Source: Trypanosoma brucei
Lineage: Eukaryota
Assembly (NCBI GenBank): GCA_000002445.1
Contig: CM000207.1
Location: 2,848,001-2,912,000 of the forward strand
Direction of reading: 5' to 3'
Length of the DNA: 64,000 nucleotides
The number at the start of each line of letters is the position of its first letter. Within the stretch, counting starts at the first letter, position 1. The notes under the pieces were generated by a model, which worked only from the letters and a program-made list of their open reading frames with translations, was not told the DNA's origin and did not search any database. Both the position numbers and the translations under genes were made by a program. Of the stretch, positions 1,783 to 62,200 are shown one piece after another.

Positions 1783-3324
1783 TTATACCGAACTCACGAA
1801 AAAAGCAGCCAAACTCAGAGCAAATCTATTATTGACAAAAAACTGGAATCGTTGCATTCTTTTCCTTCCAATTTACAATCAGAAGATTTGCAGTCGCCTT
1901 GCTTTTTTCTTATCTTTGCATTTCTCTGTTGTTTTCTCTTTTGTGCCTCCTGATTGTTTTTCTGCTTGTTTGGTTGCTTCTTCATCCAATTTGCACTTCT
2001 TTTTGCCACCTTCTTCGTCAAACAATTTGCATGGGGGTTTACATTCAGCTCCTGCTCATTTGGCTGCGCAAGTTGCTTCTGTTTCAGTTATTTTTGGGGG
2101 TGGCGTGTTTAAATTTTTTTGTTTTTCTGTGGCAAGCTCCTGTTCAAGTTCCGCAAGTCGACTGGCTCTTCGGATGTATTGCAGCAATAAGCTTGCTCTC
2201 AGATCGTCGCCGCCACCTACTTCCTTCAGTGTCTTTTCCTCCGTTTTGTCCGCCAACACTTTCGTTGCCGGTATTGTTTTCAGCTTGTTTAATATGGCCT
2301 CTGCTTGACCTGTTGTTTTTCCTGATACTTCTTCCAGTAGCTTCTCTGTGCCGTAGTCTTCTTTGCTTCCTTTTTCGTACAGCTTTGCGTTCTTACGGAT
2401 GGCTTTGAGCGTAGCAACCGCTGTTGATGTATCTAATGCGTATTTGATTACCTCGTCTTTGCTTTCTCCGCAATTGCTGGTGTCAGCCGCGATCAGCCCC
2501 TTCAGTTTGTTAAACACCTTTGCCGGCCTCCTGGATTCGTCGGGCGCCTGCCAATTTCCCCCTATTTGTTGCAATTTGGGTATCCGGATGTCCGTTCTTG
2601 CTGGCGTCGAATGCGGTGTTACTTCTATGAAGCCGGCTATGACTGGGATGGCGCCTTGCGTGGCGTCCTGCCACACGTGGGCTGTTGAACTTGCACCGCC
2701 GGTTGCTAGCAGGTGGCACTTTGTTGAGCCGGCGCCGCTTGTCTGTTTCGCAGCCGTCGCCGCCAGCTCATCGAACCCTGTGTGCTTCAGCGCCCCGCTT
2801 TCTTGATAGTCCGCCGCGTCGATGTTGTCGGTGACGGCTTCCGGGCACCCAAGGCGCGTCTGCTTATTGCTCCCTGTGGGAGCGCCTCCGCTTGCCGCTA
2901 GGCACGGCCCTGTGCTTCCGCCTGTTGAAGCTGATATTTAAAAATCTACGAATTCGTTGATTGCTCCTACGCTCTTGGCGGCATTTGTGGTCGCCAGAAG
3001 AGCTGGTTTGATCAGCTGTTCTAAGCGTGCAGCTTGTAACTCTGCACATTTGTGTGCTTCCAGAGCCGCCGCTTGATAAAGGCTTGATGCATTGGTGTTT
3101 GTTTCTCTGCTCGCCGCTGAAAGTAGTTCAAGTTGGGCACTTTGTGCCGCTTTTATGGCATTTATTTCCTTATTCTGCTTGTGAAGATCTACAGCCGGTA
3201 TCTTGTCTAACTCTCTGGTCGCTTTGCACACCTTAGTTACGGCGGCTTCGTCAAAAGCATGGCCAGTCGTTTCAGCTCTATGTGTGAGCCCCGCTAAGAC
3301 GGTTATAGTTAAGACAAGAAGCAT
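1783..3324 (-). pseudogene. VSG: VSG pseudogene (A-type N-domain), at least 2 frameshifts
   Basis: Three minus-strand ORF pieces in different frames. 2938..3324 has the signal peptide MLLVLTITVLAGL plus A-type N-terminus. 2056..2676 is mid/C-terminal domain. 1815..2021 is Cys-rich CTD (GDCKSSDCKLEGKECNDSSFL). The proper GPI tail FFVNNRFALSLAAFFVSSV* ends at 1783 only in a shifted frame (T-run indel). Confidence 0.8.
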
Positions 3325-5256
3325 TTTTTTTTCTTATGCCTACGAAGATCAGCTGTGTGGGCGCAGCGCAGTTGCTTGACAGTGCGGTCTTGGCAAACAA
3401 AAAAAGGATATTTTGGTTTGGCCTATTGGAAGTTGCTGAAGTATGGCTATTGCTGCTGCGACTACCGAGCTAACAGATACACATGATCGCTTTTCTGCTG
3501 TTGCTGACCAAAATAACACAAAGTATCCCACAGTTTTCATGATCTTTCTGTACTGTTCTATTTCCTCCTCTACTATAAATTATACCGGGAAACTATATTA
3601 TTTGTTGTATGTCGAACTTACTGGTTAACACTATGTTTCTTCTTCCGATTATAAACCACAGTTAAAAACATCCACACATTAGCATCTATCCATTTTATAA
3701 TGCCTTGTAGATCACAATCCGTCTTTTTTCTTTGCATCACGTATTTTTTCCTTCTAATCTTTGATGTACAGTAGCTTATTCGGTCTTTTATAGTGTTTTT
3801 TTCATACTTCTTTATCTATAATAATTTGTACTTCTGCTGATAATGTAGCAGGTCCATTAATAATGTACACTGCACTGTTTTTACATAATTTTCTCTCCAC
3901 TTCCTTGCGAATCATGATCCCCATCATCACATTTGTGTTTGCGGATGCAAATTTTCCATTTCCATTTCTAAATCTTCAAACTAATTACAATATAAAAATT
4001 ATCACTTTGTTTCGTTGAGGTTTTCATATGTTCAACTTGAGTAAGTGTTGTATTTAGTGTAGAAAAAACATGTGCAAAATGACAAATGTATGGTCTAAAA
4101 TTATCGCATACGACTGTACATTAAATTATAAGTTTCTTGTCTATTTATATCTATCAGATCTATCTCGTTCATCCGAAATTTTAATTCTATAAATCTTGAA
4201 AATACAGCAGATATTTTACTCCTTAAAATTCAAATTTTATGGCTTACAATCTGTGCTATATGGCGGTTCCTTTGTAGTGGTGCATCCAGCTTCTGAAATT
4301 ATATAACTTTTTTCTTTTTTATTCTTATGCTCGACCTTACGCCAATTTTCTTCACAATCTACCTCATTTTAGGTTGTTTGCACTTCAGAGACTGTGCTTT
4401 TGGATTCCATTAAAGTTTTTTCAACTTTTCTGTCGAATTATTTGCCACGTTAGCACTGTACGATTGAAAGCACTTATATGAAATGTGCGTTCTTCAAATG
4501 TACTTATTTTTTCCTCTTGGCGAGTTTTGAATTAATGTAGTTTTGCTACTATTGCTCCCTGCTTCAATAAAGCTGCTATAATGTTTCACATATATTTTAT
4601 TTTAAGCATCCTTTACCAATATATCTTTTTTCTGTCTACGGTTATCAAATAGTAGTCCTCATTTTAATATCTATCTCTCAATAATATTATATCGTTTGCG
4701 ACAAATGTAGGTGGTTGTTACTATATGTGATGGGGCAGTTTCGACATTACTTTATTCCTATTCGATCACCTCCACTGTCTCCTACTTCTTCTTGGCATTG
4801 TAATCCACCACAATATTGAAAACCGCATTCTACCATCTCTACAGTGGAGTCTATCCACATCTCTGTCTAATACGGAGCGCAACTTCTCCTCCTAATGTAT
4901 CGTTTTCTCCTATGTTGTGCTATTGTGCATCCAGTTGTTTTCTTCTTAGTTTTCTTTCCTTCTTTTTACTCTTATATCGGTTTCTTCTGCAGATGATATA
5001 GGGAATCTATTAGACCTTTAAAATAGATACTGTCACCTCCATCATCTTTTAATTTTGATTTCCATCATTAAGTTTATCTTTTAGATCTGCGCATTACATC
5101 CCTCACCCCTTCTCCATCTCTTTCCTTTAATAACAAACCCCCTTTCTGTATAATACTCACTTTTCAACTGACTCCCTTAGCTCTATTGTTCTCCTTTCAT
5201 TTATTTAAGTTCTTCTACTTGGTCATTCTATTTAGTCCTCACTACAACCTCTGTCA

Positions 5257-8811: not shown

Positions 8812-8940
8812 TATTATTATAATATTCGTATATACACACTCACAACACTGTCCTATCAATATTATTACTATTGCAACCCTAATTAATATCTATAAAATAA
8901 ACCATGTAACAAATTAGTAAATATTAGAATAATACTCAAT
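8812..8940 (-). repeat. 70-bp repeat region
   Basis: ataatattcgtatatacacactcacaacactgtcctatcaatattattactattg... motif. Confidence 0.8.
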
Positions 8941-9145: not shown

Positions 9146-10552
9146 TTATAGAAGCAAAAATGCATGCACAACAGACTCCTTATGAATGACAAAAGAATTG
9201 CTTCCTGTGGTGTTTGTGTTTTTTGTTTCTGCCATAGATTCAGCTGTGTCTTTTTCACATTTGCTCTCTTTTTCATTATATTTGCACCCATCCTTTTTGT
9301 CACATTGATTTTTGTCATTTATTCCGCCGCGGTCGGTTGTTTCTTTTTTAGAGAGGCATTTCTTGACTACAGTTGGAGCAGCTTTCTTTTGTGCCATGTA
9401 GTAAGCTAGCGCCGAGCCCAGTTTGTCTAGGTCATTTATTTCACTTAATTTTTCACCCTGATCTGCGCTTGTCGCTTGGGGTTCGAGTGTTACACTATTG
9501 ACTGTTGTCCATATCTTGTTATCGAAACTGTTGTCCGCTTTGCCGTACACAGACTTCTTGATTCGTTCGATTTCATCTGTATGTTTCCCTTTCGCTGATT
9601 CCTTAGCTTGCCCGTCTATCGTAGCTAATATCGTCAGTTCGAATGGTTGGTCTTCTACTATTGCTGCTGAAAGTAGGTCATCTGGTTTAAAACTAAGCTT
9701 GGCGATAAGGGTTTCCGTTGTTTTCAGGCCTTTGAGAGCATCTGAAATATAGTCCTTGCTTGGTAGCAGGTCCGCTGGTTTCATTGTTGTTTGTTTATAG
9801 TCATTGTCGTCTGCTGTTTGTCTCTCAAGCTGTTCAAGTTTCTCGTTTAGCATGGCTCCCGTCGACATCCCAAATTGTGTTGCTGTCGTGTCTGCGCCGC
9901 CGCAGTTGTTGTCTGTGAGGCTGGCTCCTACGCAACACCGCAGTCCTGCTGTCTTGGTGCTCGCGTCTGGTTTGTTCCTTTGTAGCACGACAATCGCTAT
10001 TTTCGGCCCGCGTTTCTCTGGTACAATGGGACTGTCTGCCCCTCTTGGTGTTGCTGCCGATTTACCGCAGGCTTCTTTACCGGTGCCAAAGGCGACATCT
10101 TGTATTGGTTTGCCGTTTGCGGTTATTGTTGCCGCTGTGTTGCCGGCGTCGACACTTTCTACTTTCAGTTTGGCTACGTCGGCGATTAAGTGTTGCATCC
10201 CGTGTATTCTGCTGAGACTCGCTATGCTCGCCATTAGTGTCTCTAGCGCTCCGTTTAGGTTTTTTTGAGCCGCCGCTGTGCGTGCTGTTCCTGCTGAAAT
10301 TACCGGGGCAAGCAATTGTGTCAGTCGCCCATTGTTTACTGCCGCGGCTACTGATAGCCGCGCCAATATAATGTTCGCTTTGTGCAGCTGAGACTGCTGT
10401 GCCTGTACGGCGCCTGATATTTTTTGTGTCATTTTCTCAAATTTTTCGCTGCGTCGCACGCATTTCTCGTGTTTTTTTCAGTTTCGTGAAAGGCGTTGAC
10501 TGATAGTGTTACGAGCACCGCTGAAAACACCCGTTGTTGATATCGTCTTCAA
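9146..10552 (-). pseudogene. VSG: VSG pseudogene (frameshift near N-terminus; signal peptide out of frame)
   Basis: ORF 9146..10459 is 437 aa with the GPI tail ...NSFVIHKESVVHAFLLL* but starts at a GTG inside the N-domain. A candidate ATG/signal segment (MLKTISTTGVFSGA...) lies upstream, around 10545, in another frame. Confidence 0.75.
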
Positions 10553-11974
10553 CATCTTTGGTCCGCTGCGAAACCATACCCATGAGGCATAAAGAAGGGT
10601 TAATTAGTTTTAAGTGTACAGGTTTGACCGTAACCACTCTTTGTTGTTTTTGTGTTCTAGTCGGGTATGGACCGGATTTTATAACAATGACATATGGCTC
10701 TTGGTTAAAAGCAAACTCCCTTATAAAGATTTTGACAATTTTATCGTTGTTGATTTATTTGGCTACTTTCTGGAACAGTTTTATTAGATCTTTATTTGCT
10801 CCAGTCTGCTGGCGGTATATAATAGGATCTACGGTCGTTTCCTCATTTATTATATTTTAGTAAAAATGACGAAGTCTACTTTCAAAAACTACCACTTTTA
10901 AATCACAATCTTTATCAGTGTACATCTAAAACAATTAAAATTTATGATCGTTTTCCGCTTTTATCTTTGCACAAGCCTCTGTCTGTGGGAGTACTTCAGT
11001 GACGATACAACTCCACCGCCTCTGCTGTACGCATAGCCTTGATCAATTCATGGTATTGTACTGTGTGCACTTCCTTTCTTATGTTTTCATCAGGCAAGTG
11101 GAGCTCTGACTACACTCTTTTGTTTTGAAGTTTCTTGAGACGGTCCATCAAAGCCTCATCATCGTATATTCTTATATGAGTTATCCGGTATTTTGAGGCT
11201 GCTATGATTATACAGTGAGTCAGTAGTGGAGAGTCGGAGCATTATTTGAATCTTTCTGTACTTCATAAAGGTCTCTATTGTCCACATATATACTATTTTA
11301 AGAACCTACCGTCTTTATTGTTCTTTTTTGATCCATAGTATTCCGTTAGTACTCCTCGTTTTTAAATCTTTATCCAAGCAATATTATATTGTGGTACAAT
11401 AAATGTTGATTATTATTCTTATATCTTGTGAGAAGATTGCAACATCATTTTGAAGCTAAATACTCTCTTCTTTCTCCTGCTTACATTTTTTACTCATCTT
11501 TTTAACAGGTGGATATTAGGATCTACTATCAGATTTTAAACAACAGTTTTCTCGAACTTCACTGCTGCACCCATTGGTTTATGAGTAAAGCAGAGAGCAT
11601 CATCTCCTGATGTATTATTTTTTTTAGTGATGTACTGTCTTGCATCCTGTCACCACATTCTGTATTTTTTGTTCCTTGTCTTTACTTTTCTGCCACTTTT
11701 TTTGGATAACGTAGACAACTTATTTCGCCTGTAAACTGCATTGTGTCCCTTTATTATTGTCCCATCCCTCATATTAACCTATATGATGATTTCCCTTTTT
11801 ATGTATTAATTCGAAAACGCGAACATTTAATCTCCGTCTTTCTCTTCTTTTTTGCGCCCCCTTTAATAATAATATTACTCGTCCACTCTTTCACAGACTT
11901 CTTTACTTACTCCTTGTGTGCCCTTACCATATCTTTACTTCTTCTTTTCTGTACATTCATTTAGTATTTACCAC

Positions 11975-12100
11975 CATAATAATAATATTAGTATACACAC
12001 ACTCACAACATTATTCATTACCGTTACTACTATTACTTTTATGACATCAACTAATATCCATTAAATAGACCAAATAAAAAGAATAAACCAATTTATTATA
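11975..12100 (-). repeat. 70-bp repeat region
   Basis: cataataataatattagtatacacacactcacaacattattcattaccgttactactattac motif. Confidence 0.75.
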
Positions 12101-12237
12101 TGATCTATTTTTACACACTATCACCATAATATTTCACAGCCAGAAGTCACTATCATACCAAATTTTCATTTGTTCAGGATTTTACAATATGTGAATTTTC
12201 CAAATTTTATAAAATTGTTCAAAAATTCCTTAAAATG

Positions 12238-12340
12238 CTAAAATGCTATCATACTCACAAAAACAGCAGCCATAATAAGAGCCAATTTTTGATTGAGAAA
12301 AATACTGAAATCTTTGCAGGTTCCGCCATCCCATTTGCAG
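12238..12340 (-). pseudogene. VSG: Orphan VSG 3' end relic (GPI-signal coding segment only)
   Basis: Reverse complement reads ...DFSIFLNQKLALIMAAVFVSMIAF* with its stop at 12238-12240. No VSG body follows on the minus strand (12340-12600 has no VSG-like frame). Confidence 0.65.
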
Positions 12341-12756
12341 TTGCTGTTCTTTTTACAAGCTTTTTGGTTAGTTCCATGTTAGGCACACCTATCTTTCTTC
12401 CCATGTTTCCTTCTTGGTATTCTTCTCCTTCCCCTTTTGTGTTTTATGTTCCTCATTTAGATTTTCATTCCTTTTTTGGTGGCATCATAGACGTAATGTT
12501 GACTTGGGCATTCTTCTGCTGTTTTTTTAGTTTTCATTTATTCTGGCATGGTATTGTGAGCGAAGCTGCATAATGTCTGCTGGCCTTCTAATATTGGTCG
12601 CCTCATCGCTCTAGTCAGGCCGCGTGGCGTTTAATAAAAATTCCATAAAAAGAAAAAAAGCGAAGATAAAAAATCTCTGGTAAAAAAACAAAAAAATAAA
12701 AAAGGTAAAAAATTTAAGCGATGCTTCATTGCTAGTAAAAACTAATTTATTAGTAA

Positions 12757-12865
12757 GGGGAGAAATAACCCTAACCCAAATAACCTTAACCTTGACTCTA
12801 AGCATAACCGGAAGCCGGATAACCCTCTCTAGCCTAACGTCCATAACCTCTCTGCCTCCTTCCTA
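12757..12865 (-). repeat. Degenerate telomere-type hexamer tract (CCCTAA-like on plus strand, TTAGGG-like in VSG sense)
   Basis: aaccctaacccaaataaccttaaccttgactctaagcataaccggaagccggataaccctctctagcctaacgtccataacc shows 6-nt periodicity. It includes 2 perfect CCCTAA units plus decayed ones, and sits about 200 bp downstream of the stop of the intact VSG at 13060. Confidence 0.6.
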
Positions 12866-12984
12866 CTTTATTGGGTTTCTGGAGAAAAATTCAACAGGAA
12901 AAAAGAGTGAATTTTTTTTAGCTATTAGAAAATTCAAAGAATCAGAGAGCCGAAAAAAATTATAATTTCTCGGCTAATTTTTAC

Positions 12985-13000
12985 GTGTTAAAATATATAA
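12985..13000 (-). promoter_or_regulatory. VSG 3'UTR 16-mer
   Basis: gtgttaaaatatataa, 1 mismatch, 60 nt below the stop at 13060. Confidence 0.7.
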
Positions 13001-13059
13001 AGTAGCAAAAATTTTAGCAAGGAAACATTTTTTCATAAAATTGAGGAGGAAAAATTGTT

Positions 13060-14523
13060 TTAAAAAAGCAAGGCAGCAAATGCAGCAAACACGTGAGGAA
13101 CAGACACTCTCACATTGCTAGAAAATGACTTGTCATCTTTCTTTTCAGTTTCAGGTTTTGGAAAGCATCTTTCACCCTCAGGTTTTTTATCATCAAAATC
13201 ACAACCAGCTTCCTTTTTACAATCTTTGGCTGTTGTATGCTTTTTGCATTCGTCTGCTGATTTGGCTGGTTCTGTTGTTTTATCTGTATTTGTGGGACAT
13301 GATCGATTTGCTTGGTTTTTCTTCTTTTGTTCTTGTTCGTCGACGAATTTTTTGACTGTGTAATAGGTTGCTGCATTTGCGAGCTCTTTGGGGTCATTTA
13401 TTGTCTCAAGCTTATTTTCCCCATTTCCACCTACTGCGGATTTTGGGGGCTTTAGGTCCTTGAGGTCTTTGACTATGGTGTTTTTTACTATTGTTGGCTC
13501 TTTGCCAAATGTTTCTGCCATAAACGAGTCGACTTTCGCTTTCGTTGCAGAGTTGGCATATGTCGCTTTGTCTCCATCTAGAGCTTTGGCTATGGCCTCC
13601 TTCAGTTCCGGTCGCGCCGCTACGTCTTCTGGGCTTGAGACATCTGATATGGCGTCTAATGCCTCTACCGCCGTTTCTAGTTTTCTTATTGCTGTAACCG
13701 CCTTGTTTAAAGTCTTGTCATTGGGTATCGTTGTTGTGCTGGTAATTGCTGGATATGTTTTGCCTGCTGAGCTAGCCAGTCGTGTGGTTGTTACGGCCGC
13801 TGTTTTAAGGAAGTCCCCGCCTTTGATCCCGATAAAGGTTGCTTCGTTTTGACATCCGGTTGATGGCGCCGTCCCAGTGGAGCCGTGTCCCCAAATTGTC
13901 AACAATTCGTTGTGCGTTGTGCCAGGGGTATTTGCACTGACGACGAAAAACTTTAATGTGGGCTCGCCCTGATTGGGTTGGGCTGCTTCTGCGTCGCTTA
14001 CTGGTGACCCGTCGTCATTAAAGCACGCCGCTGTTGCTGCTGGTGCTAGGGTCGGTTTGACTTGGATTATGCCGGGCGTCGTGACGGCTTGAGCCGCCGT
14101 TAGCGTATTGACGTCCTGTACTTGCGCTGACTTAATTTCTGAAACGATTGTTTGCTGGCCTGCTAGCTCGGCCGCGGCCGTGAAGCCTTCTAGAAAATTG
14201 GACGTTTCGGTTTTTATCGTTTCAAGTGCCTTGGCAGTTTCCGAAGCTAGGTTGGCTGCTAATATGCTGGCTGCTGTTGCCGCCCCGCCTGTTTTATAAG
14301 CTGCTACAACGCGTAGTTTGTTTGATTTTTCTAGAGCGCCTTTTGCGTTTGTTAGTCCTCTCTCCAATGCGCTCTCCGCTTGCCGCGTTAAGTGACGCAT
14401 GTAATGACTTGCCCCGCATGTGGTCGTTACTTGAGCTTTGGGATTGTGTAGCAAAGTGGTGCCTTGTGCAGTAATGGCCGCTGCTAGTGCTAGCGCACCG
14501 GTTGCCGCTATCCAGTAATTCAT
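13060..14523 (-). CDS. VSG: Variant surface glycoprotein, apparently intact (487 aa, A-type N-domain)
   Basis: A single uninterrupted frame from ATG (cat at 14521-14523) to the stop. Signal peptide MNYWIAATGALALAAAITAQG. Cys-containing N-domain (TTTCGASHY...). CTD with CKKEAGCDFDDKK. Canonical GPI tail SVPHVFAAFAALLF*. Confidence 0.85.
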   Translation of the reverse strand: MNYWIAATGALALAAAITAQGTTLLHNPKAQVTTTCGASHYMRHLTRQAESALERGLTNAKGALEKSNKLRVVAAYKTGGAATAASILAANLASETAKALETIKTETSNFLEGFTAAAELAGQQTIVSEIKSAQVQDVNTLTAAQAVTTPGIIQVKPTLAPAATAACFNDDGSPVSDAEAAQPNQGEPTLKFFVVSANTPGTTHNELLTIWGHGSTGTAPSTGCQNEATFIGIKGGDFLKTAAVTTTRLASSAGKTYPAITSTTTIPNDKTLNKAVTAIRKLETAVEALDAISDVSSPEDVAARPELKEAIAKALDGDKATYANSATKAKVDSFMAETFGKEPTIVKNTIVKDLKDLKPPKSAVGGNGENKLETINDPKELANAATYYTVKKFVDEQEQKKKNQANRSCPTNTDKTTEPAKSADECKKHTTAKDCKKEAGCDFDDKKPEGERCFPKPETEKKDDKSFSSNVRVSVPHVFAAFAALLF

Positions 14524-15647
14524 CGCAGTCGCTTCACTGAGTTAGTGAGGATTCCGTTCTTCGTTTGTCTGGGTTGGAACTCTAGTTGTCCTCAGGTTGA
14601 CCTTTGACGGTTATATTTGCATAAAAATTGCGGTGATTGAAGTTTTAATCTTGTAAAGGATCTCACATACCTGGTTTTTAGAGTTTGTTCAGCCTCAGTG
14701 CTTTGGTTTTTGGGTTTCGCGCTGCAACCTGCACATTAAACTCGTAGTGTAAGGTTTTGGAACTGTGTCATCTTTTAGGGCATAAACGGATTAAACGAGT
14801 TTATAACATCATAAACATAATGAGAAGGGGGAAGGATTTCAATAAACGACTTTTTTGTTCAAATTTTCCATCTATAATTCCAATATATATCGGATTATAT
14901 CTATGTCCATCATCTAGTTTCGTTCCATTCAAGTGACGTACTTCTTTAAGATACATCGAATATTTTTATACCTTAAAATTAGAAGCTTATGTCTTGTCTT
15001 TGCATATAATTAGCGACAATTCTCCAGTCCACGCCGCTGTAGTAACCAGAAAACTTCTTTTTTGTCATGGAAGCAATTGAAATTTGCTTTGGTTTTGCAT
15101 TATGAGTTCTTTCGTTTTTTGTCTAAGTTCAATGCTCTGAAAATTTGGTCCTGAAACTTCTTTTACCTTTGCGTTTGTTTTTTAGAAACATAACTATATT
15201 TCACCATTTGTAACCGCTTTCATATACATCACTCGTTTCCTGAAAACTATTAGCTTCAGTCTAGCATACCAATATGGAATTGGAGGCATATTCCCATTGA
15301 TTCTTTACGCTTCATAGAGATCCTTCATTTGGCCGTATAGAATGTTTATTTTTCTGTTAACTGTATGTTTCCATTGTGCTTTGTTCATAAGCTTATCCTT
15401 TCTGTATCGCTGTATAGAACATATTATATACATTTTTCAGTTGTTTGCGTTGTGCATCTTCATGATGAGTGTTTGTTCATTACTTAGTTTGATACCGCGT
15501 GTAATCCATCTCTATTCGTAAAATTTCTTTTATAATAGTATTTCTTGTTGCTCCTGCAAATTTTTCTTCAAACGCTTAATTTCATTGCATCCTTGCAATT
15601 GTTTTAAGTAAATCTATTATCGCAGTGTATCTATTGTTCAACGTCAC

Positions 15648-15775
15648 TTATATTATAATATTATTATATACTCACAACAAGTTCCTCTACTACTATTTCT
15701 ATCGTACCCATAGCTAATATTTCTAAGATAACAAAAAATAAAGAATAAATAAAATAAGAATAGTAATCATTTTTC
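15648..15775 (-). repeat. 70-bp repeat region (degenerate)
   Basis: tattataatattattatatactcacaacaagttcctctactactatttctatcg... then ataaaaaataaagaataaat. Confidence 0.7.
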
Positions 15776-15992
15776 ATAATTACCATTAGTTTTAACCCAC
15801 ATGCCGCCATCATACTAATTTTTACTAAAGTTCGATATTTTCAAATTTTCTCAAAATTATCAACAAATTTGCATATTTTATCTAAAAAGTGTTATAATAT
15901 CATAAATATAGCAAATCCTCCTAAAATAGTAAACATCATAAAATTCACTGAGTTGAGAAAAATTCTTTTACCAATAGTTCTCTAAATTGTTC

Positions 15993-27206: not shown

Positions 27207-29154
27207 ACGGTTGTGTACCAGGTTGTTGCTAGTATTTGAGTTGCTTTCTTTTTTAGTTGCTTGCTTGTGTGTCGCTTTATTGATGGTTTGGTCCCTGTGT
27301 AGCTGTTCAGTGTTTCTGGGCACTGTGAGTTTGTGTCGGAAAGAAAGGTCGCCAAGAACGTTATGTGATGTTACGTCGAGCTGTGTTGCTTGGCCGCGGT
27401 CTTTTTGGTCTTTTGGAGGTCATATTATTGCAATTCGAGTGGTCGACTTCTGAAAATTCAGGCTTGGTTTCTTAAAAATATGGTGACCATAAATCATTGG
27501 TGAATTTATAGAATTAAACCCAAAACAACATTGTTTCCTTTACTGATTTTCCTCTCCACTCCCTCTATCGGCTTTTATTTCAAGCATTTTTGATTTACAG
27601 CAGTTCCAGTTAACACCACGATGGAGAAAGGTTCTACAGTCACCATTGCTCTCAGTACAAGTTTTGAAACTATTTTGTCTGCTTCTGTCACCTATCGCTG
27701 ACTAAAGTTCAGTTTTTATCAATTAACTGCGTCACCAATTTCTTATTGGCATGGAATTAATGCGCTACTGCCGGTTCCAATATCGCCGTTAGTTTTACTT
27801 CATAGATTGTTTTGGTTTTTGAATTTCCTTTGTCTGCATATAATCTTGTTGTCATGAGTGAAAATTCCGCTTGAATCTTTTTGATAAGCTGCGCCATCTT
27901 ATGGTAGAAATGATTATTGGAATGTAACAGCTTACTTTCTAGTAAGAACAACGCTAGCTCCATTTATAAATTCCAAGCCGCTCTTTTTTCATCATCATTA
28001 AAAATTCTACCTATGCCCCAACATTCCAGTCCCGTTGCTGCAACTCATTGAAAAACTTTCCACATATAAATTTCAATGGTTATAGCTGTTAGTGTGTTCT
28101 ATTTTATACAGTTTTGTTCTTGTGTTGACACTGCTGGCGTAACGATTTAACGACGATCTCTTTCAGGGAAGAGATTCTTTATTTGTTTCTGTTTCAGATT
28201 AAGCTGCTCTTTGTTTCACCGACGCTTAAGACAAGGTAATGTTGGAAACAAATATGCTTTTCTCGCCCATTTTGTTTTGTTAAAACTGGTGTTGGTTTTA
28301 AATCAGAGACAAATCTTATGTTAATTACTCTCTCATTTAGAAGTCTGAACGTCTCGCTAGTGCACCAAGCCAACGTTAGTGATCTTTCTTTGTTAACTCC
28401 TCTCCACTTCATATATTTTCTCCACAGCTTCATATGTGTTTTATTTCAAGTACTTTCCTTGTATTCATTGTCCTTGTGCTGTTTATAGAAATCAATTAGA
28501 AGTTTTCATTCTATTCATTCCCCCGATAAATATTATATTGTTTCCTACAAATACTGGTCATTATTACTATGTCCAATGAGAAGACTTCATAGTTACTTGA
28601 AACTTGCACAACACCTCTTACGCCTGTTTCTATTCCTTCCAATTCTTCTTCACAGCTATATATTAGGACTCTGCATCAGATAAAAGGCCCAAGTCAGAAC
28701 CATCGGTGTTGCATACACCCGTTTTTCAGGAAAAATTGGGCCATCATTGACTCTTTATCTTCTTATTACTCCTGGTTTATCATTCTCCCCTGTCCTTTGC
28801 TATTGTGCATCCAGTTGGTTAGTTCCGTATCTTCTTTGCTTCATCTGCCGCCGCTTCTCCAGACAACAATACGAGGGTATTTGGTCTGTGGACAACGTTC
28901 TTCCCCTCGATAATTGTTCTCCTCCACCATCTTCATATGTAAAATGATTCCCATCGTAATATTTTTGGGTTGGAACTGCGCATATCTCCTCCCCTTGTGT
29001 TTCTCTGTCTCCTTATTTATGTTCTTTCTTTAATAATATTTTTCTTTTTTTTCTTTCCTCTTTCTTCATGTCTTACTTACTTACTCCCATAACGTCCTTA
29101 TCATTACTTCAAATAGTTATATATATGGATAAATCAGTAAGACTTCGTTACAAT

Positions 29155-29290
29155 TTCTATAATAATATTAGTATATACACACTCACAACACTCCACTATC
29201 ATTACCATTATTATTACTATTATTACTGCTCTAATTATAATATTCGTATATACACACAACGCTTTCATATCATAATTATCATAACATTGA
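29155..29290 (-). repeat. 70-bp repeat region (2 units)
   Basis: ataatattagtatatacacactcacaacactccactatcattaccattattattactattattactgctctaattataatattcgtatatacacacaac. The second unit contains the ttactgctct..ataatattcgtatatacacac core. Confidence 0.85.
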
Positions 29291-29299
29291 GCAAAAATG

Positions 29300-30728
29300 C
29301 TTTGTGTTTTGAAATACTAAAAGCTTCCAAAATGATAAAAGCAGCAGCAAAAAGATAAAAAATTTTATTTGGAAATAAACGTGGCTTCCTGAAAGCGTCA
29401 CTTTCCTATTTATAATCTTTTTTAGGTTATGTCTTCCATTTTTCTATTGTTGTTTCAGCCCCTCCATTTTGAGTTTGTGATATAGGGACGTTGTTTTCTT
29501 TTGCTTTTGCGGCATTATATTTGCATTTTTTATCGCCCTCAACTGCGTTTTTGTTATAGCTACAGTAAGGCTTGTTGTTGTATCAATATTATTTTGTGAT
29601 TTGATTGCATATCTCCTGGATTTTCTCTGGCTGGCATTTTGTTTGCTGAGCTACTGCGGTTGTAACCAGTTTAGGGCTTATTGCGTCAAAGAATTGATGT
29701 ATCCTCTGTTTGACTCGCTTGTCGTGCCTGCCGCACGGCCACTATTGCCTTGTTGGCTTTTAGTAGGGTGTCTTTTGATATCGTGAGCTCTGTCTGGTCC
29801 TTGCTCCGTCCGACTTCAGCCTCAGTAGTCGCTATGTTTTCGTAGTCCATCTTGTCGGTGGCTTCGCCCAATGTTATTACATTCTTTAGGGCCGCTATCG
29901 CTGGTGTCAGTGAAGCTGCTTTGGTGCTCGCCAGTAATTGTATTTGTGCTAATATGGTGTCGGTGTCGATGGTGCTGGTGGTTTTCCATGCTGTGTCGGT
30001 CGAATCTCTGCTAGTTATTTTCAGTAAGTCACAGACAAAAAAGTTCCACTGTTTCTTCCACCGCTTAAATCTATAAAGCCGTCGGTTGTGTCGAGCCGCG
30101 TTAGCTTACAGCCTTTGTCGGCATCGGCGCCTTTCATTGTTTCGGTTGCTGCCGCTTCTGTAAGTTCAGTAGTGTAGTCCGGTTCCGCGTTTTTCTGGTT
30201 GATGGGCCACTGCGTTGCAAGCTTACCGCTAACGGCGCACGCTCCCATGTGTTCAATTTTGGCCCGATCTGAGCCACTGTTGTCTGCGACCACGCAGTAG
30301 TTCGCGCTGCCGTTATGTGCCGAGAAAAAAAGGTTGACGGTTTCCATTATCGCGCCTGCCGCCTCTGCTGCCACGAGGCCCTTGTGGATCGTGGACTTTA
30401 ATTTTGCTTTGGCTTCCGCTTGCAGTTTCTGCTGGCGCTCCCGGACTAGCATTAGTAGGTCAATGCTTTCCGGAGGTTCCAGCATCTCTTTCTTTTTTAT
30501 GCACTCCGTCATATCGTCCACCACACTTTTTGCCTTTTCGAGCGTTGAATCAACGCTCATCGCTATTGTCGCTGCGAATTCTCCATGAGCGCGCAGCTTA
30601 GTTGCCAGCGTGCACGCGTCGATGAAGCCTTTGGCAGCTAGAGCAGGCCTTACGGAGTGTACAGGACGAGCTACAACTGCGATCACAACGGCTACGCAAG
30701 CGGCCCGGAAGTTGTTGTTTAAGAACAT
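29300..30728 (-). pseudogene. VSG: VSG pseudogene (N-terminal half intact; C-terminal part degenerate; 3'UTR absent)
   Basis: ORF 30021..30728 has signal peptide MFLNNNFRAACVAVVIAVVARPVHS plus an N-domain. Downstream pieces (29686..29871) are in other frames. A relic GPI-like segment at about 29300-29400 abuts the 70-bp repeat with no 16-mer. Confidence 0.7.
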
Positions 30729-32229
30729 TAAAAACTCTTTTCTTTGTTTCGATTTACTACTTGTTGATGTTGTATTTGAAGGTGTTTTTGGTAAAGTTGC
30801 AAAAAATCATCTGTAAGCGGTGTCAGCTATCGACTGTCTTCAATGTTGAAGTTAAGCTTGGGTGCGTTGTTGACGGACGAGTGATTGTCCTACCTGTGCT
30901 TTGTTTCCTTATTTTGCTTTGTGTGGTGGATAAGTTTCTGTGCTTTTTTTTCGGATTATGGCATTGAAGGGGTAGAACCTCATAACACCAGAACCTTCGT
31001 TCTTGGGTCTGCATCTATTTTAACTTTCACCAGCCTATTTAGTAAGTGCTTCTCGATCTTACGGGGCTACAGTATGACGTTCAAGGATTTCTCATGCTTT
31101 TAAAAAAGACAAGTTCCTCCGTCACAGCGCTTTCATCCCTAACCTTTCTTCCTTCTTTTCTATTTTCTTTAACGGATTATCAAAAACCATACTCATTTAC
31201 TGCTGTTGTTAATGTCTCTCCAGTGATTTTATCTTTGCTATTTTTCCGCACTTGTGAAAATACATTACAACTTGCAGCGGTGTATTAACGATACATCCCA
31301 AAAAACTGGCTTTCACTCTTATATCCCATCACCACAGGTTTATTAATTACCATTTTCATTGGCATCACAGTTTTCTCCGATGGATGCACTCATTTTGAAG
31401 CCAAATGCGGACCATTTTTATTCTTCATGCATTTTAATTTTAAGAAAATCCCATGTCCTTGGGAAACAATGGTTTATATCGGCGTAGAGAGCTCAGTTTT
31501 ATATTTTAAGCGTTTTATTTTTCTCTTTTCGTGTTGACATTCTGGGCGCTAATGAGAAGGTTTTGCTTCTCATTTTTCTAAACTCATTCCGTTTGGAACT
31601 TGGATTTTCGTATTTCTTCCATGTTTATTTTTGTGTTTCTACCGCTTTTTTAGTGCTTGTTACTCTCTTTTAAACGTATAAATAGATGAAAATTTAGGAA
31701 AAATAAATACTTATGTAAAATGGATGTAATTTTCTGGTGTTTGGCCGCTGGGTTGCATCTACTTAAGCTATTCTATGTCATCTCATTTATAATCTATTGA
31801 TTCTTCGATTTGAGTTATATTTTCACACTTTCAGCTGACTTCAAACTCGAAAATGTTGAAATGATTTGTTCTATCGGATAACTTGTTCAATTTACTTAAA
31901 TGCAAGGCCCTATAAGCGTCAGTGCCTCTACACTATTTTTTGATGCCATAACAGTTTTATTCATCGCTTCACTTCGATGTTTTTGTGCTTTCTTTTGGTT
32001 TCTGTTGTTATCGAGACATCTACTTTGATGAGGTTGCTTTTAAATTTATTGGAAGCACTTATTTTGTTTTTGTCTGCGACTTTAGTCGTTTTTATTTATT
32101 TTATTTTTTCTTGAGTTACAGCCAGTCGGCAAGCTGCTTAGATTCCGATAATTACAGTGTCCTATGCGCATTTACTCTAGTGTACCACCATTGCACTTTA
32201 GAATTATATTCCCGTTGATATCGTTTCGG

Positions 32230-32470
32230 CAGTGTACCGCTCTGCTTCCCCTTTAGCTTTGCGTTCTAGCCACATTTTGGTTGCTATGTCCATTGCAACT
32301 ACTGCTTTTGAGAATGTGCCGTCCAGCTCTGTTTTGGCTTTTTACTCCATTTCTCTGAGGTAATGTGATGCCTCACAAGCCTTCGTTGTTTTCGCTTTCC
32401 TGTTATGTATTGCGGTTGAGACCGCCTCAAGCAGGCTAACGAGCAGTAATACAAATACAGGGCTTGACAT
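32230..32470 (-). pseudogene. VSG: VSG N-terminal relic (about 80 codons)
   Basis: Reverse complement reads MSSPVFVLLLVSLLEAVSTAIHNRKAKTTKACEASHYLREME..: a signal peptide plus the start of an A-type N-domain (cf. TTTCGASHYMRHL of 13060..14523), then decay. No 70-bp repeat or VSG body is nearby. Confidence 0.6.
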
Positions 32471-34844
32471 GATTTTTTTTATTCTTCTCTTTCCCTTTAG
32501 ATTTCATGGTGGGTTGTGAGGGTTGAGGTGAGGTCTTTGGGCATTGTGTCTCCTTAGAAGCTCTTTATCTAAAGTTGTAGCGGAAAATAGGGGACGTTTT
32601 CTGGCACTTCTTTGCACTTTGTGTAGTGAATTTTTCTGTTCGTTGCTTCTATGGTTAGAGTGCTGTTTTAGATCTGCGAACCAGCATCGGTTTACTTCCG
32701 CTTCTCTTGAAGATATGTTTTGATAATTAGGGGGATTCTGGCCTCGCTATCTGTCTAACAGCCGACCTCTTCACCGCCTTTTCTTATTGATTTGGTTTCT
32801 CTTCGCAGTCTTATACCTTGTTGGCGTCACCTGATTTTTACATTCCCTCAGTAGTGAATAATGCTTGAGTTACAAGGGTTCCAGCGCTGCTGTTAATATG
32901 TGCTTTGCTTACTCTTCGCTTTCTTTTTTCTGTACCAATTTTTATTTTCTTGTTACTTCTGGTATTTGAATTGCTTTCGGCATGAAATTTATTGCATGCA
33001 TTGATACTACAATGTGATACACTCCCACTGTTCTTTATAATACTGCACATTTTTCTCCTACTTAAAATTCAGTTCTTATGGTTTATAATCTACTTTATAT
33101 TCCGTTCATCTTTTTCCCTTACATGCTGATTCAGTAACAATGTAAGATTTCTGTTGCTCCTGGACCCGATTTACTTTTCCTTTTGTCATGAATTATATAT
33201 GCCTGTATATCTTCTCTGTTACAGACATGGAAATTTGTGGCCAGAAAGTGTTTTTGTACTGCTTTTGCTTTATTAATCCACACTGTCAATAGCGGCTTCG
33301 TGACCTCTTTTATATAAATTACACGTTACTTGAAAGGTATTAATATCTCCACAGCATCACAACATGTAATTGAAGAAGTGCAACCATTTATTTTGTAGAC
33401 TTCATACAGTTCTTTCATAGATTCATATATGTGTCATTTCAAGCAGTTTCCTCGTCTACACCTTTTTCTTGCTGTTCTCAGTAATCCATTGGTAGTCTTA
33501 GTTTAAAAATTGATCTGACGATAATATTATAGTGTTATACATAAATGTTAGAAACTATAACCAAGTTTGTTGACGAAAAGAGTTTGACATCATTTCATAC
33601 TTACTTAATCCTTTCCACATATTTGTGGTTTTTTTCCTTATTCTTTATAGCTGAATATCGGGATCCGCTACCACATTAAAAACTATAGATTAGACTGTTA
33701 TATCAGATTTAGCATCTATCCATATTTGAACAAAATACTGAAGATCATTTTGACTCTATATGGTACTGCTAATTGTCGAAACTTACGCTGCTCACATTAG
33801 GGGCATTTACCTTCGCGGATAATTCAACTTCGCATGCTGTGCGTATGATTCATTTCTTTGTGCAGCGATATTGATAGCACTGGGGAGAATTTGATACTGT
33901 TGTTTATCAAGATATTACTCATATCCGCAACTTAAATGCTCCTGTTTCCTCTATTTTTTCTATTTTCTGGTGATGTTTAATGACACTTTTTGCTTTCTTT
34001 TGAATGTAACTCTGTGTAAAACTGTAATAGAAAGAAAATACCTATAAGAAGCGACTACCGTTTTCTAAGAAAGAATTTATATTGGGATATTGTAACTCAC
34101 ATTACTTTTATTCTACTAACTATGCCATTTAAGGCCAATTTTGAACATTTTTGTAATTGATTATAGAAGACGACAAAAACCTGCTTACAATCTTATACCT
34201 TTGCCCATTAACCTCATTTCAACGACCAGAAAGTTTACCTTTTCTACAAAATATTGTGATGCTATAATGTTTTTATTTCTGCCTTTCCTTCGCTGTTACC
34301 TTGCTTTATTTTTCTTTCTGTTTATGTTTAAAAAGTTGGTGTTCAGTTTACTAGCTTGCACAATTTACCGTCTAATTGTTAACTACTTAATCTCTCATTT
34401 CTTTCCTGATTTTGTAATTCAGAAAAAGACAAAATTTAATACGAATAGTAAAAGCGTTAGTAGATTAATACACCTCATTACAATCCGTTGTGTTAATGAT
34501 AGAGCATCGAGCAAAAAATGAATTATTGGAACAGTTCCTGAGATAATATTAGTAGTAGTACTCTTAGATAATTTACACTTTTACCCATTGCTTGTGTAAG
34601 CTGTAGAGACCCAATTTAGACTAAACTAGTTGCTGTATTTTATTTATTATTAAACTCGTTATCTCCTTGTGTATGATTATTTCTATATTCATGTTTCTGT
34701 TTGACATGCGCATATTCCATCTCTTTCTTCTTATCTTTCACTCTGTCTCACTTTCTTACTCACTTAACTACTTCTGTTGCACAATCGAATTGGTTTAAGT
34801 GCTTTTTTTGTCTTCCCATTTAGTCTTCACCACTTTTTTACACG

Positions 34845-41854: not shown

Positions 41855-42030
41855 CACAATATTCGTATATTCACACTCACAACACTCCACTATCATTATC
41901 ATTATTATTATTATTATTACTGCTCTTATTATAATATCCGTATACACACACTCACAAGACTTTCCTATCATTATTATTATTATTAACCTAACTAATTCTT
42001 ATGTAATAAACTAAATTAGAAGATATTAAT
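41855..42030 (-). repeat. 70-bp repeat region (2 units)
   Basis: cacaatattcgtatattcacactcacaacactccactatcattatcattattattattattattactgctcttattataatatccgtatacacacactcacaagactttcctatcattattattattatt. Confidence 0.9.
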
Positions 42031-45555: not shown

Positions 45556-45744
45556 TTCATATTCTGTAACATTATTTATTTATACCAATAGGTCACTGTC
45601 ATACCAAAATTTCATATTTTATAGTTTTTCAAAATTTTACTAATTACCATATATTTATGGAAAAGATTTTTAATATATCAAATTTTAGAAAATTCTTTCG
45701 GGAAGTATAGTTTCATAGGTTTTCATAAAATTGAGGAAAGCTGC

Positions 45745-47153
45745 TTAGAATGCAGCCAAAACTAACGCAGCAAATACCTGAGGAACAGAACCTCTCAAGT
45801 TGCTGGAAACCGACTTTTCATCTTTCTTTTCAGTATCAACTTTGGGAAAGCATCTTTAACCTCAGATTTTTTCTCATCAAAATCACAACCTTTTTCTTCT
45901 TTGCAGGGTTTCTGTGTTGTATGCTTTTTGCACTCGTCTACAGCTTTTGTTTCTTTCTTTTCTGTTTTTCCTTTCACTTCCTCGCTGCTGGTGTCGCATT
46001 TCGGTACTGCGGGTGGTGAAGTTCCCAAAGCCACAGCCAATGCAACGCCCAGATGGTTATCCTCTTCTAGTTTCTTCAAGTTTTCAGTTGTTGCTTTTTT
46101 CGACTCGTAGTAAGTTGCCGTTTGTTTTTCCGCGTCCTGCCAAACCTGTTTGTTGAAGGTATCTTGGTCGCCGCCGAAAATTTTGTTGATTTCGTCATCT
46201 ACTTTTGATGTCAGTGTCCCAGTTATCTCTGTCTCGGCTGGCATTGCGAGTAGCAGTCTCTCTACAAGGTTGAAAAACTGGGGGTGCCCTGTGCAGCTTT
46301 CTCGCACATGGGCTTCTGGGATATTGGTGAGTGCTGAGACGGCGGCGGATATGACTGTATGGTTTTCGTCCAGTTTGTCTTTGTCCACTCCGGTTAGTTT
46401 GATAGTGCCGGCGATTGGAATCTTCGCTGTTGTCCAGCTTTGTGGGCCGCTTGTTGCGGGCGGTGCTGTGTTGTGGTCTATGTTTAGCGTTACAGTGAAG
46501 ATGTCGGTGGCGCTTGTGCCGCTGCACGCCACACCGCTTTTCGTGCACACGTGGCTTAATTTGAATCCGAGTTGTGGTTTCCTTAGCCCTTGTCCTTTTG
46601 CTAATGTTTCCACCGATATCGGCGGTGTGTCTTCAGCTGTTTTCGTTGTACACCCGGCTTCGACGTTTGCCGTCAGGCTTGACGTTGTGTACACCGCGTC
46701 GCCGTAATGGGTGTTGGCGCTGGCGCCCGGTGTCACCGTGTACGTTTTTCCGCTCTGCGGTGCCCTCACTTCAGCGTCGTACCCGCTGTACAGCGTGGTT
46801 ACGAGTTTCAGATAGTGTCGGACAATCGGGCTGTTTTGGCTTAATAGTCCCGTCCAGCCGACTGCGCTATCCTGTGCTATGCCCGCTAATATCGCAAATT
46901 TGGCCTTTTGTATTCCGGAGGTCACTGCCGCGGCAACAGTTAGCTTTTCTGCTGCTTATGCCGACTCCGTCACTCTGCCTGCTGCCGTGTCTAGCAAGCC
47001 GCTTAGGTACTTTATCAGTTCCTGTGCTCGGTGCCTGCAGTTGCAGGGGTTGGTGCAATCCGTGCGTTTTTCTGCCGGCTTTGTTGCCACCGCAGCTTGG
47101 CCTAAGGTTGCAGCGCACGCAACAAGAATAATGCTTGTCAACAAATAGCACAT
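45745..47153 (-). pseudogene. VSG: VSG pseudogene (2 frameshifts: one near N-terminus, one about 20 codons from the C-terminus)
   Basis: ORF 46956..47153 has signal peptide MCYLLTSIILVACAATLGQAAVA. ORF 45795..46925 (376 aa) carries the N-domain plus CTD in another frame and ends …KDAFPKLILKRKMKSRFPAT*. A 1-nt shift restores …AFPKVDTEKKDEKSVSSNLRGSVPQVFAALVLAAF* with its stop at 45745-45747. Same CTD family as 13060..14523. Confidence 0.8.
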
Positions 47154-49404: not shown

Positions 49405-49550
49405 ACCACTATTATCATGAAATTAGTATATACACAATTATGATACTCTCATATCATCATGACAATTATTATTATTATTATTTTAACCTTAACTACTATC
49501 CATAAAATGAACAATACAAACTAACTTAGAATACCAATCATTTTTCACAC
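49405..49550 (-). repeat. 70-bp repeat region
   Basis: aaattagtatatacacaattatgatactctcatatcatcatgacaattattattattattatttt. Confidence 0.75.
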
Positions 49551-57990: not shown

Positions 57991-58664
57991 CTCGCGTGTG
58001 CGTTAGCGTCTGCACCGATGAGCTTGGCACCGTCAGTTGTCAGAAGCGTATCTAGGTCAGTTGCCGTGAAGGTGTGTTTTGGTGGGATGTATGCCGACGT
58101 GACAGTCAGCGCCGTTCCACGTGCAAGGTGAATTGTTGCATGCACTTGTTCAATGCGACCAACAACGGCCATACCGGTCTCGACTGGCAGGTCCTCCCTC
58201 ACTAGTATTGATACACCACCTCCTTTGCAGTTACGAGCTATTCCGTGATGTTGGTAGCCAGAAACGCTAAAGCAAGCCGCCTCTCCAGGCGTCATCCTTG
58301 TCTCGCTCAACAGACAAAAGGCGATCCGCTCATCAACAAGGGTTTTGTAGAGTGCTAATCTCTTTCCTTGAGATAGCCCGGCGTAGTTCCACTGCATCCC
58401 GCGCAACGACGGGCCGGGATTCTCTTCCACATCACCGGACAGCAGCATCTTAGTGCGGATGATACTGCTGATGGCACGCTGGCACGTGCCCAGGGACCGA
58501 CAAATGAAGAACGGTGTCCCAGCAAGACGCTGCTGATCCCTGTGCTGTATGATGCCGTAGCCGGAGCACAGCAGTGTTCCCCATGAAAGGAATGCTTCTG
58601 ACTCTTGGCTTCCCCCGATGATACGGGGTACTGGACCCTGGCACCACGTTGAAGTGGCCGGCAT
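57849..58664 (-). CDS. ingi N-terminal segment with 2A peptide plus AP-endonuclease domain
   Basis: …RTKMLLSGDVEENPGPSLRGMQWNYAGLSQGKRLALYK…VSILVREDLPVE…: the 2A-like D(V/I)ExNPGP motif followed by an APE-like fold. The ORF-track start lies inside the Pr77 region and is probably not the true start. Confidence 0.8.
   Translation of the reverse strand: MPATSTWCQGPVPRIIGGSQESEAFLSWGTLLCSGYGIIQHRDQQRLAGTPFFICRSLGTCQRAISSIIRTKMLLSGDVEENPGPSLRGMQWNYAGLSQGKRLALYKTLVDERIAFCLLSETRMTPGEAACFSVSGYQHHGIARNCKGGGVSILVREDLPVETGMAVVGRIEQVHATIHLARGTALTVTSAYIPPKHTFTATDLDTLLTTDGAKLIGADANAHASWHGIARAHQIQRVKPSHSGALTTSFWSATLVSAPGTRATTGSPPLM
58410..58433 (-). other. 2A-like self-processing peptide motif DVEENPGP
   Basis: Residues 78-85 of ORF 57849..58664. 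A motif of this type is known from trypanosomatid L1Tc/ingi elements. Confidence 0.7.
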
Positions 58665-60757: not shown

Positions 60758-62200
60758 TTGCCAACATCGCTAAAGATGACAGCGTCAGGGAGATGGGCGC
60801 TCTGTTGGCTGATTGAACTAGGCAACAAGCGGGAAACACTAGCCATTCAGCCCCCAACTCAAAACACGGATTTGGACGATATCCTAGAGTTTAATACGAC
60901 CGTATCAGACCAAGCTTGGCTGGACCTGTTCCGAGACAAAACAAACAAGGAGACAATACGCGCATTCCCAGACGACGAGCTCGGGCAACACCCGGACTGG
61001 AAAGAAAGATGGAACAAATGGCAGGCAGCTGCTTTAAACGTAATCAAGCCGGACGGGCAACAAGCTGCACTGGCAAAGCACAAGCTAAAAGATATAACCA
61101 CAGAGAAGGAGGCGGCAATCCGCCCACCTGTCCAGCGCCACGCGGCCGAGGCAACTGCAACCAACGAACACATGCAAAAAGCAGCGCCGACAGAAAATCT
61201 GCTAAACGACAGCGCCTTACAACAAAAGCTAAACACGGCGCTCTACGGCGACAAAACCGGGAGCGACGCTCCTTCCGACGAAAGCAAACTTTTCAAGGGG
61301 GCAGCCACCGCCGCCGGGCCAAAATCAGCGTGCGAAGGCAGCACGCAAAACAACAAAGCCGTAACAGTCACGGCAGCTTTGCTATGTATATGCACCAGAC
61401 AGAACGGCGCAGGCAGCAACGAAGGCAGCGCGTGTGAGTACGTCACAGGGACCACCCAGACGTGGCCAGGAAGCAGTAACTATCCAGCCGCGGCAGCAAT
61501 ATCTGAAGCAGTCAAACTATGTGACTTACAGACAAAACACCATATTACGGCGGATACACTCGCAACGAAGCTACTGCACATCACAAAACTAATCATGCGC
61601 GTAAACGGAGCGGCGACCTTTGGTAAAACAATCAACGGCCAATGCACGGGCAGCCAAGACGGAGGCATGTGCGTAAAATACACAGACCTACGGACCAGCG
61701 GAAGTAAAACATAAACAGACATACCTTGGCTCGGTCAGCTACAGAAACTAGTGACAGTACTACGAAAGCACGAAAAAGCAGTACAGGTTCGCCAACAAGC
61801 ATCAGACGCAATAAGGAAAAAACGGCTACAAGCTCAATCACTGATCTACAGCGAATCACCACAAGCTCGAGAACAAATGCAACCCAAAAACTGCATACCA
61901 CAAAAAAAAACACCAAAGAATGTGAACAGCACAAGAACAACAAAACTGCATGCACAAATGCCAACTGCAAATGGTAAGAAAAAATGAAAAAGAGGAATGC
62001 AAACCTAAAGATGAAGAAGGACAGTCAAACACAGCAGAAGATGGAGTTTCAGGAGCAGCTGCAAAAGAGAAATGCAAAGGGAAACCCCAAGGCGAGTGCA
62101 AATCGCCGGATTGCAAATGGGAAGGTGCAACTTGAAAAGATTTTAGTTCCCTCACCAATAAGAAATTGGCTCTGATGGCTGCTGTATTTATTAGCTTAGT
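60758..62200 (+). pseudogene. VSG: VSG pseudogene on the plus strand (B-type N-domain; CTD frameshifts; degenerate GPI end)
   Basis: ORF 60758..61714 (318 aa) is a B-type N-domain (…LDDILEFNTTVSDQAWLDLFRDK…) with a poor signal peptide. CTD pieces 61726..61977 (KECEQHKNNKTACTNANCKW) and 61950..62135 (CKGKPQGECKSPDCKWEGAT) are in 2 further frames. A tail KDFSSLTNKKLALMAAVFISLVEL.. has no clean stop. Confidence 0.75.

Follow-up and report, generated by a model that had tools for sequence, protein, structure and literature searches.

The 64-kb stretch of Trypanosoma brucei DNA analyzed here (hereafter, the window) is a variant surface glycoprotein (VSG) array, in which 70-bp repeats recur every 2.8 to 5.7 kb, mostly at intervals of about 3.5 kb, the ORFs match VSG Pfam families, nearly all cassettes occupy the minus strand, and the 16-mer characteristic of VSG 3′ UTRs is found 13 times, against a chance expectation of 1.1. 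The only full-length VSG ORF within the window is located at 13060–14523 (minus strand) and encodes a protein of 487 aa with an A-type N-terminal domain and a C-terminal domain (Pfam PF00913 and PF10659). The protein is identical (100%) to XP_827758.1/EAN77428.1 of T. brucei TREU927, which is annotated as “variant surface glycoprotein (VSG, atypical), putative.” Its reading frame is open from the signal peptide to the GPI signal, but the full set of conserved cysteines is not present: a tryptophan, encoded within ...ELLTIWGHGSTG..., has replaced a conserved cysteine, resulting in TIWGHGS where all relatives retrieved display TICGHGS or TLCGHGS (T[IL]CGHG). This substitution probably accounts for the “atypical” annotation, and the protein may, judging from its sequence, fold abnormally. 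The preliminary description of this DNA had singled out the gene as the only intact VSG; it is indeed the sole full-length ORF, but the annotation and the loss of a conserved cysteine speak against calling it simply intact.

The closest relative of this VSG is MITat 1.21 (VSG21; 86% identity), which, in strain Lister 427, resides in BES4, a telomeric expression site of a 0.25-Mb chromosome (PMC2567434). This level of identity signifies paralogy or allelic divergence rather than a recent telomeric copy, and exact-protein look-ups for the 13060–14523 VSG and for XP_827758.1 yielded no further copies. The telomeric location of the nearest relative is compatible with, but no proof of, a telomeric history of the gene. 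On the upstream side (14524–15700), the gene is set in sequence familiar from the rest of the array, with the region 14942–15720 resembling other array cassettes in blastn comparisons within the window and a 70-bp repeat (family D15) at 15636–15700 (minus strand). On the downstream side, the 3′ UTR and flank (12866–13059, minus strand) contain the conserved 16-mer, identified by a 16-mer scan at 12985–13000 (TTATATATTTTAACAC, 1 mismatch). Within the window, a single cassette resembles this flank, and the resemblance (13030–13100 with 45720–45785) extends no more than 30 nt beyond the stop; downstream of 13030, in gene sense, the flank has no match in the other cassettes of the window.

Starting 210 nt past the VSG stop (from 13060 to 12849) is a run of degraded telomere repeats, 84 bases or approximately 14 units long, which occupies positions 12766–12849 on the minus strand, that is, in the VSG sense. 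In gene sense, this TTAGGG-like (T2AG3-like) tract reads GGTTAT GGAC GTTAGGC TAGAGAG GGTTAT CC GGCTTCC GGTTAT GC and continues to its far end as TTAGAG TCAA GGTTAA GGTTAT TT GGGTTA GGGTTA. The hexamers are directly preceded by a purine-rich lead-in at 12850–12865 (minus strand; TAGGAAGGAGGCAGAG in gene sense, as read from the sequence). At the end farthest from the VSG, from 282 nt past the stop, the tract displays 2 contiguous perfect telomere units (12766–12777; TAACCCTAACCC on the plus strand), which represent the sole telomere match of at least 9 nt on either strand of the whole 64 kb, the longest perfect match being 12 nt. The plus strand is CCCTAA-like and the gene is on the minus strand, so that the G-rich strand runs in the VSG sense.

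The preliminary description had reported a hexamer-periodic tract about 200 bp past the VSG stop, TTAGGG-like in VSG sense and oriented as behind a telomere-facing VSG, and both the position and the orientation were recovered in our analysis. The limits given there, 12757–12865, enclose the core, but the outermost segments, 12757–12765 and 12850–12865, are not hexamer repeats. Similarly, the count of 2 perfect CCCTAA units depends on the register: exact CCCTAA occurs once, whereas TAACCC occurs as 3 perfect units, 2 of them contiguous (12766 and 12772) and the third in the middle of the tract (12820).

Local alignment of 12766–12849 to (CCCTAA)n (match +1, mismatch −1) yielded a score of 35, compared to 7.5 ± 2.3 for shuffled versions of the tract, none of which (0/500) reached 35. 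When the perfect 12-mer was removed, the score was 26 versus 7.3 ± 2.3 for shuffled sequence (0/500). In a scan of the whole 64-kb window, the runner-up site scored 14, and the top scores in 10 block-shuffled 64-kb windows ranged from 12 to 18. A weak G-rich match at 32426–32584 was considered as a second tract, but its score of 14 lies within the shuffled range of 12 to 18 and the match is thus noise; no telomere-like sequence other than the tract was found in the 64-kb window. The tract is identical to the telomere repeat in 65 of the 89 alignment columns (73%), with indels. Autocorrelation was highest at lag 6 (0.449 versus 0.278, z = 3.5, p ~0.001), so that the hexamer periodicity exceeds that of shuffled sequence, and a second, weaker peak at lag 15 stems from AAATAACCCTAACCC / AAATAACCTTAACCTTG. 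Rfam and tRNA scans of 11500–15800 produced no matches, and neither did an exact 26-mer scan of metagenome contigs.

Beyond the tract is a spacer of 150 bp (12616–12765), A-rich on the plus strand and T-rich in gene sense, with 56% A at 12640–12750, the stretch previously described as A-rich. Apart from low-complexity matches, the spacer has no paralogues in the window and none in 6 other VSG loci, and neither the spacer nor the vicinity of the tract matches any of 4 primers (Kieft et al.) that derive from the 3′ ends of 2 expression sites, BES1 and that of VSG3. We also considered the A-rich stretch as the poly(A) tail of a retroelement, which was ruled out because it is preceded, on that strand, by the antisense of a VSG C-terminal domain. 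An ATG-started ORF of 77 codons (12611–12844, minus strand) runs over both tract and spacer; neither homologues of the encoded protein, among 5.8 billion proteins, nor an exact-protein match were found, and the ORF is almost certainly spurious.

The VSG C-terminal domain adjoining the spacer is an orphan relic on the minus strand (12238–12534), interrupted by stops and frameshifts and recognized by three-frame translation, tblastn and DNA paralogues. Its translation reads ...KTKKTAEEC...HGTNQKACKKNSNCKWDGGTCKDFSIFLNQKLALIMAAVFVSMIAF and terminates with a stop after ...CKWDGGTCKDFSIFLNQKLALIMAAVFVSMIAF at 12238. An orphan VSG relic had already been noted at 12238–12340; the relic is real but longer, being recognizable in tblastn searches with VSG C-terminal domains to at least 12534 and its DNA being paralogous to other cassettes as far as 12536. 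Motifs discerned by eye (LE..D...A...Y and KKQQKN) suggest that it may reach approximately 12615. The relic is followed by its own 3′ UTR (12051–12237, minus strand), for which the 3′ UTRs in other cassettes are paralogues. No 16-mer was found in it at up to 3 mismatches; a degenerate candidate, identical at 11/16 positions, can be seen by eye at 12179–12194. Next comes a normal 70-bp repeat (11968–12050, minus strand; families D4 and D5), also in line with the earlier account, which starts the next cassette downstream. Within the window, the 12.7 kb beyond the tract hold at least 3 more VSG cassettes in the same orientation, the downstream neighbor VSG being located at 9146–10459.

Compared with a standard VSG array cassette (70-bp repeat, VSG, 3′ UTR with the 16-mer, next 70-bp repeat), the tract-bearing cassette has the same upstream 70-bp repeat, upstream region and 16-mer, and its overall length of 3668 bp is similar to those of its neighbors. 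It differs in that 935 bp separate the 16-mer from the following 70-bp repeat, whereas the corresponding distance in 8 other cassettes is 123 to 208 bp. The extra DNA consists of the tract, the spacer and the second VSG 3′ end. The co-occurrence of the tract with the orphan stump and the 935-bp spacing suggests a past rearrangement.

No telomere-like tract was found in the other cassettes of the window or in 6 VSG loci of T. b. equiperdum and T. equiperdum (L001 to L006, 71 kb), of which 2 short contigs, L003 and L004, end 164 to 189 nt past the VSG stop, before what follows. The tally, 1 tract per approximately 35 cassettes sampled, implies that array VSGs do not generally have such a tract, in agreement with the previous statement that array VSGs normally lack one. 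Our literature searches retrieved nothing specific on interstitial or degenerate telomere tracts inside VSG arrays.

Canonical T. brucei telomeres are composed of (TTAGGG)n extending over several kilobases at chromosome ends. The tract shares with them the repeat unit and the polarity relative to the VSG but differs in having only 2 contiguous perfect units rather than a long perfect run, in its 73% identity with indels, and in being internal rather than terminal. A closer counterpart is found 3′ of telomere-proximal VSGs, where TTAGGG-like tracts were described by Aline and Stuart in 1989 (cited in Hall et al. 2013, PMC3708902); Hall et al. themselves mark 5 minichromosomal reads by a TTAGGG-like tract. 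One such element is the 106-bp T2AG3-like tract located just downstream of VSG221 (AJ271641, nt 211–322), which comprises 46 bp of T1-2AG1-6 and, behind them, 10.5 degenerate repeats (Glover et al. 2007, PMC1807955). When the telomere was deleted, the seeding of new telomeres took place within this tract (PMC1807955), a result confirmed in 2013 (PMC3610638), and telomere seeding has been demonstrated by experiment for the VSG221 tract only (PMC1807955, PMC3610638). Similarly, Kieft et al. 2024 reported that a CCCTAA primer mis-primes approximately 300 bp downstream of VSG2, at a GGGTTA-like sequence that precedes the true telomere, and that in BES1 the tract is followed by approximately 0.4 kb of non-telomeric DNA (PMC11229358). 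In 17 expression-site clones, the distance from the VSG to the telomere repeats varies from 200 to 1590 nt (Hertz-Fowler et al. 2008, PMC2567434). Thus, the assertion that telomere-adjacent VSGs carry such tracts is well founded in the literature (PMC3708902, PMC1807955, PMC11229358).

As in telomere-proximal VSGs, the tract described here begins a few hundred bases past the stop and has its G-rich strand in the VSG sense. Its distance of 210 nt from the stop falls inside the range of 200 to 1590 nt observed in expression sites (approximately 300 bp for VSG2), and, like the VSG221 tract, it is roughly 100 bp long and built from degenerate hexamers (84 bp and the 16-bp lead-in, versus 106 bp). 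The purine-rich lead-in at 12850–12865 is similar in style to the T1-2AG1-6 segment of VSG221, when the 2 are compared by description. The tract therefore matches the known VSG 3′ element, as published, in position, polarity, size and style. What sets it apart is its surroundings: there is no telomere within approximately 1.5 kb, and the tract is followed instead by the spacer, the orphan stump, a 70-bp repeat and at least 3 cassettes. The locus adds a further example of an element already described, at an unexpected site, the interior of an array.

We consider the most plausible explanation, with a probability of roughly 0.55, to be that a telomere-adjacent VSG cassette entered the array by copying or relocation and landed on a resident cassette, bringing its telomere-type 3′ flank along. 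The tract would then be the TTAGGG-like element that telomere-proximal VSGs normally have on their 3′ side, at a distance of a few hundred bases, now lying inside a silent subtelomeric array, and the donor cassette would have been located next to a telomere in an expression site, a metacyclic site or a minichromosome. The upstream join could have been made through ordinary array homology or 70-bp-repeat homology, and the downstream join would be illegitimate, inside the resident VSG, of which the C-terminal stump (12238–12534), its 3′ UTR and the following 70-bp repeat would be the remnants. On the other side, neither the exact-protein look-ups nor the relatives of the neighbor VSG at 9146–10459 led to a syntenic empty site in another strain. 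The spacer may be either donor flank (compare the ~0.4 kb in BES1) or filler, and the 2 perfect units could be the first true telomere repeats of the donor or merely part of the native tract.

By the time it reached the array, the tract was probably degenerate already, because it deviates from the consensus by 27% right beside an open ORF of 1464 nt; under simulated neutral substitution, the probability that an ORF of this length remains open is 0.04 when divergence is 5% and 0.001 when it is 10%. The argument would not hold if the ORF had been kept open by selection or gene conversion. A native degenerate tract fits the data better than a decayed telomere, and the term “fossil” used in the preliminary description, if taken to mean a once perfect telomere, is unlikely to apply. 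The accompanying proposal of a formerly telomeric VSG residing in the array fared better, being consistent with the telomere-derived character, orientation and rarity of the tract; as for the route, growth of the array over a chromosome end and duplicative transfer are both compatible with these features. That telomeric ancestry is the reason why the 13060–14523 ORF is intact is speculation.

Growth over a chromosome end, the stronger claim of the preliminary description and one that we regard as unlikely, would mean that the VSG was terminal, that its telomere eroded, and that the end was fused to, or extended from, another array inside a VSG C-terminal region. Just 2 contiguous perfect units remaining at the distal end are what a nearly eroded telomere would leave, the cassettes past the tract share the same orientation, and a junction within a VSG coding region suggests an illegitimate join, but the data equally allow cassette transfer. 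Moreover, the distal part of the tract is nearly as divergent as the proximal part (77% versus 69% identity, a small difference), the third perfect unit is located mid-tract, and direct fusion does not account for the 150 bp of spacer that separate the repeats from the stump.

Ranked below this, and improbable in our view, is the possibility that the tract marks a minority class of array cassettes, with an old type of 3′ flank spread by array duplication and without recent telomeric history. The main observation in this direction comes from L004, a 3.4-kb contig of T. equiperdum OVI that begins in a 70-bp repeat: its positions 3178–3365 align with the 3′ flank at 12893–13060 (64.6%), and past the 16-mer the 2 sequences have …TTAGCCGAG…CTCTCTGATT…TTTTCCTGTT… in common, although the VSGs themselves are unrelated (39% protein identity). 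The flank as far as 12893 is thus common to an unrelated VSG, and the sample of approximately 35 cassettes would accommodate a rare class. However, L004 stops approximately 45 nt short of the tract position and is therefore uninformative on the tract itself, all other cassettes examined lack the tract, and the orphan stump along with a spacing of 935 bp instead of 123 to 208 bp points to rearrangement.

We give still less credence to the insertion of telomere repeats by telomerase or repair at an internal double-strand break, independently of the origin of the VSG. Short interstitial telomere tracts that arose from break repair are documented in mammals (PMC2246262), the tract contains a perfect 12-mer, and the present locus resembles the short-insertion and fusion types of vertebrate interstitial telomeric sequences (for example, PMC2246262) in having non-terminal repeats associated with a past rearrangement. 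It differs from them in that the tract here appears degenerate from the outset and part of the native flank of the gene. Freshly inserted repeats would be perfect, whereas those observed are 73% identical to the consensus and contain indels beside the open 1464-nt ORF, and both position and orientation equal those of the native tract behind telomeric VSGs. There is no evidence of telomerase synthesis at a break, and the literature searched contains no report of such insertions in trypanosomes.

An assembly chimera, in which a telomere-adjacent clone was joined to array sequence, is very improbable: VSG arrays are repetitive and this one was assembled from Sanger reads, but a true telomere would have brought many perfect repeats rather than 2, and both junction regions are unique sequence. 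Chance low-complexity sequence, for which only the AT-rich, repetitive context speaks, is refuted by the shuffling tests (0/500 reaching 35, maxima of 12 to 18 in shuffled windows, lag-6 p ~0.001) and has practically no probability left.

Telomeres are the places where new and mosaic VSGs get assembled. The locus bears on the renewal of the silent VSG archive, in particular on whether genes put together or residing at telomeres ever go back into the arrays. If the transfer reading is correct, a telomere-type 3′ flank that lies in an array on the remains of an ousted resident gene would document one such transfer directly at the sequence level. More broadly, and here we are doubtful, the locus may be a footprint of telomere-to-archive traffic, in which telomeric VSG cassettes are re-deposited in subtelomeric arrays along with a telomere-seed tract, the seeds marking sites of truncation and healing. 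If true, this would provide a mechanism both for replenishment of the archive and for promotion of array genes to readily activated telomeric positions. By analogy with VSG221, the tract could seed telomerase after a distal break, returning the VSG to the side of a telomere, and might represent a latent site of chromosome truncation and telomere healing. The combination of a VSG stop, approximately 200 nt, a TTAGGG-like tract and an orphan VSG 3′ end is a searchable signature, the occurrences of which can be counted across strains. The present evidence consists of one locus. The tract is a real but modest curiosity.

Several minor observations concern the tract and the remainder of the window. 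Within and at the edge of the tract, ATAACC (GGTTAT in gene sense) occurs 5 times, at 12765, 12780, 12804, 12819 and 12843, with spacings of 15, 24, 15 and 24; this pattern produces a signal at lag 15 in addition to lag 6 and hints at a higher-order unit of variant repeats. Just after several 70-bp repeats (8868–8890, 41985–42000 and 49480–49495), the sequence reads AACCCTAATTAA, AACCTAACTAA or AACCTTAACTAC; one of these segments yields an 8-nt telomere match at 8875, but they are a conserved piece of the 70-bp-repeat flank and not a telomere-like tract. An ingi-type retroelement ORF is located at 55168–58664 (minus strand), with reverse transcriptase (55168–57990), RNase H and endonuclease domains, and past this element a B-type VSG (60758–61714) lies on the plus strand, so that the orientation of the array flips at the retroelement. 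Finally, the cassette at 29148–34826 extends over 5.7 kb, with a 235-aa A-type fragment (30021–30728) as its sole VSG content and a copy of the usual upstream region (33031–33418), and may be another rearranged or composite cassette.
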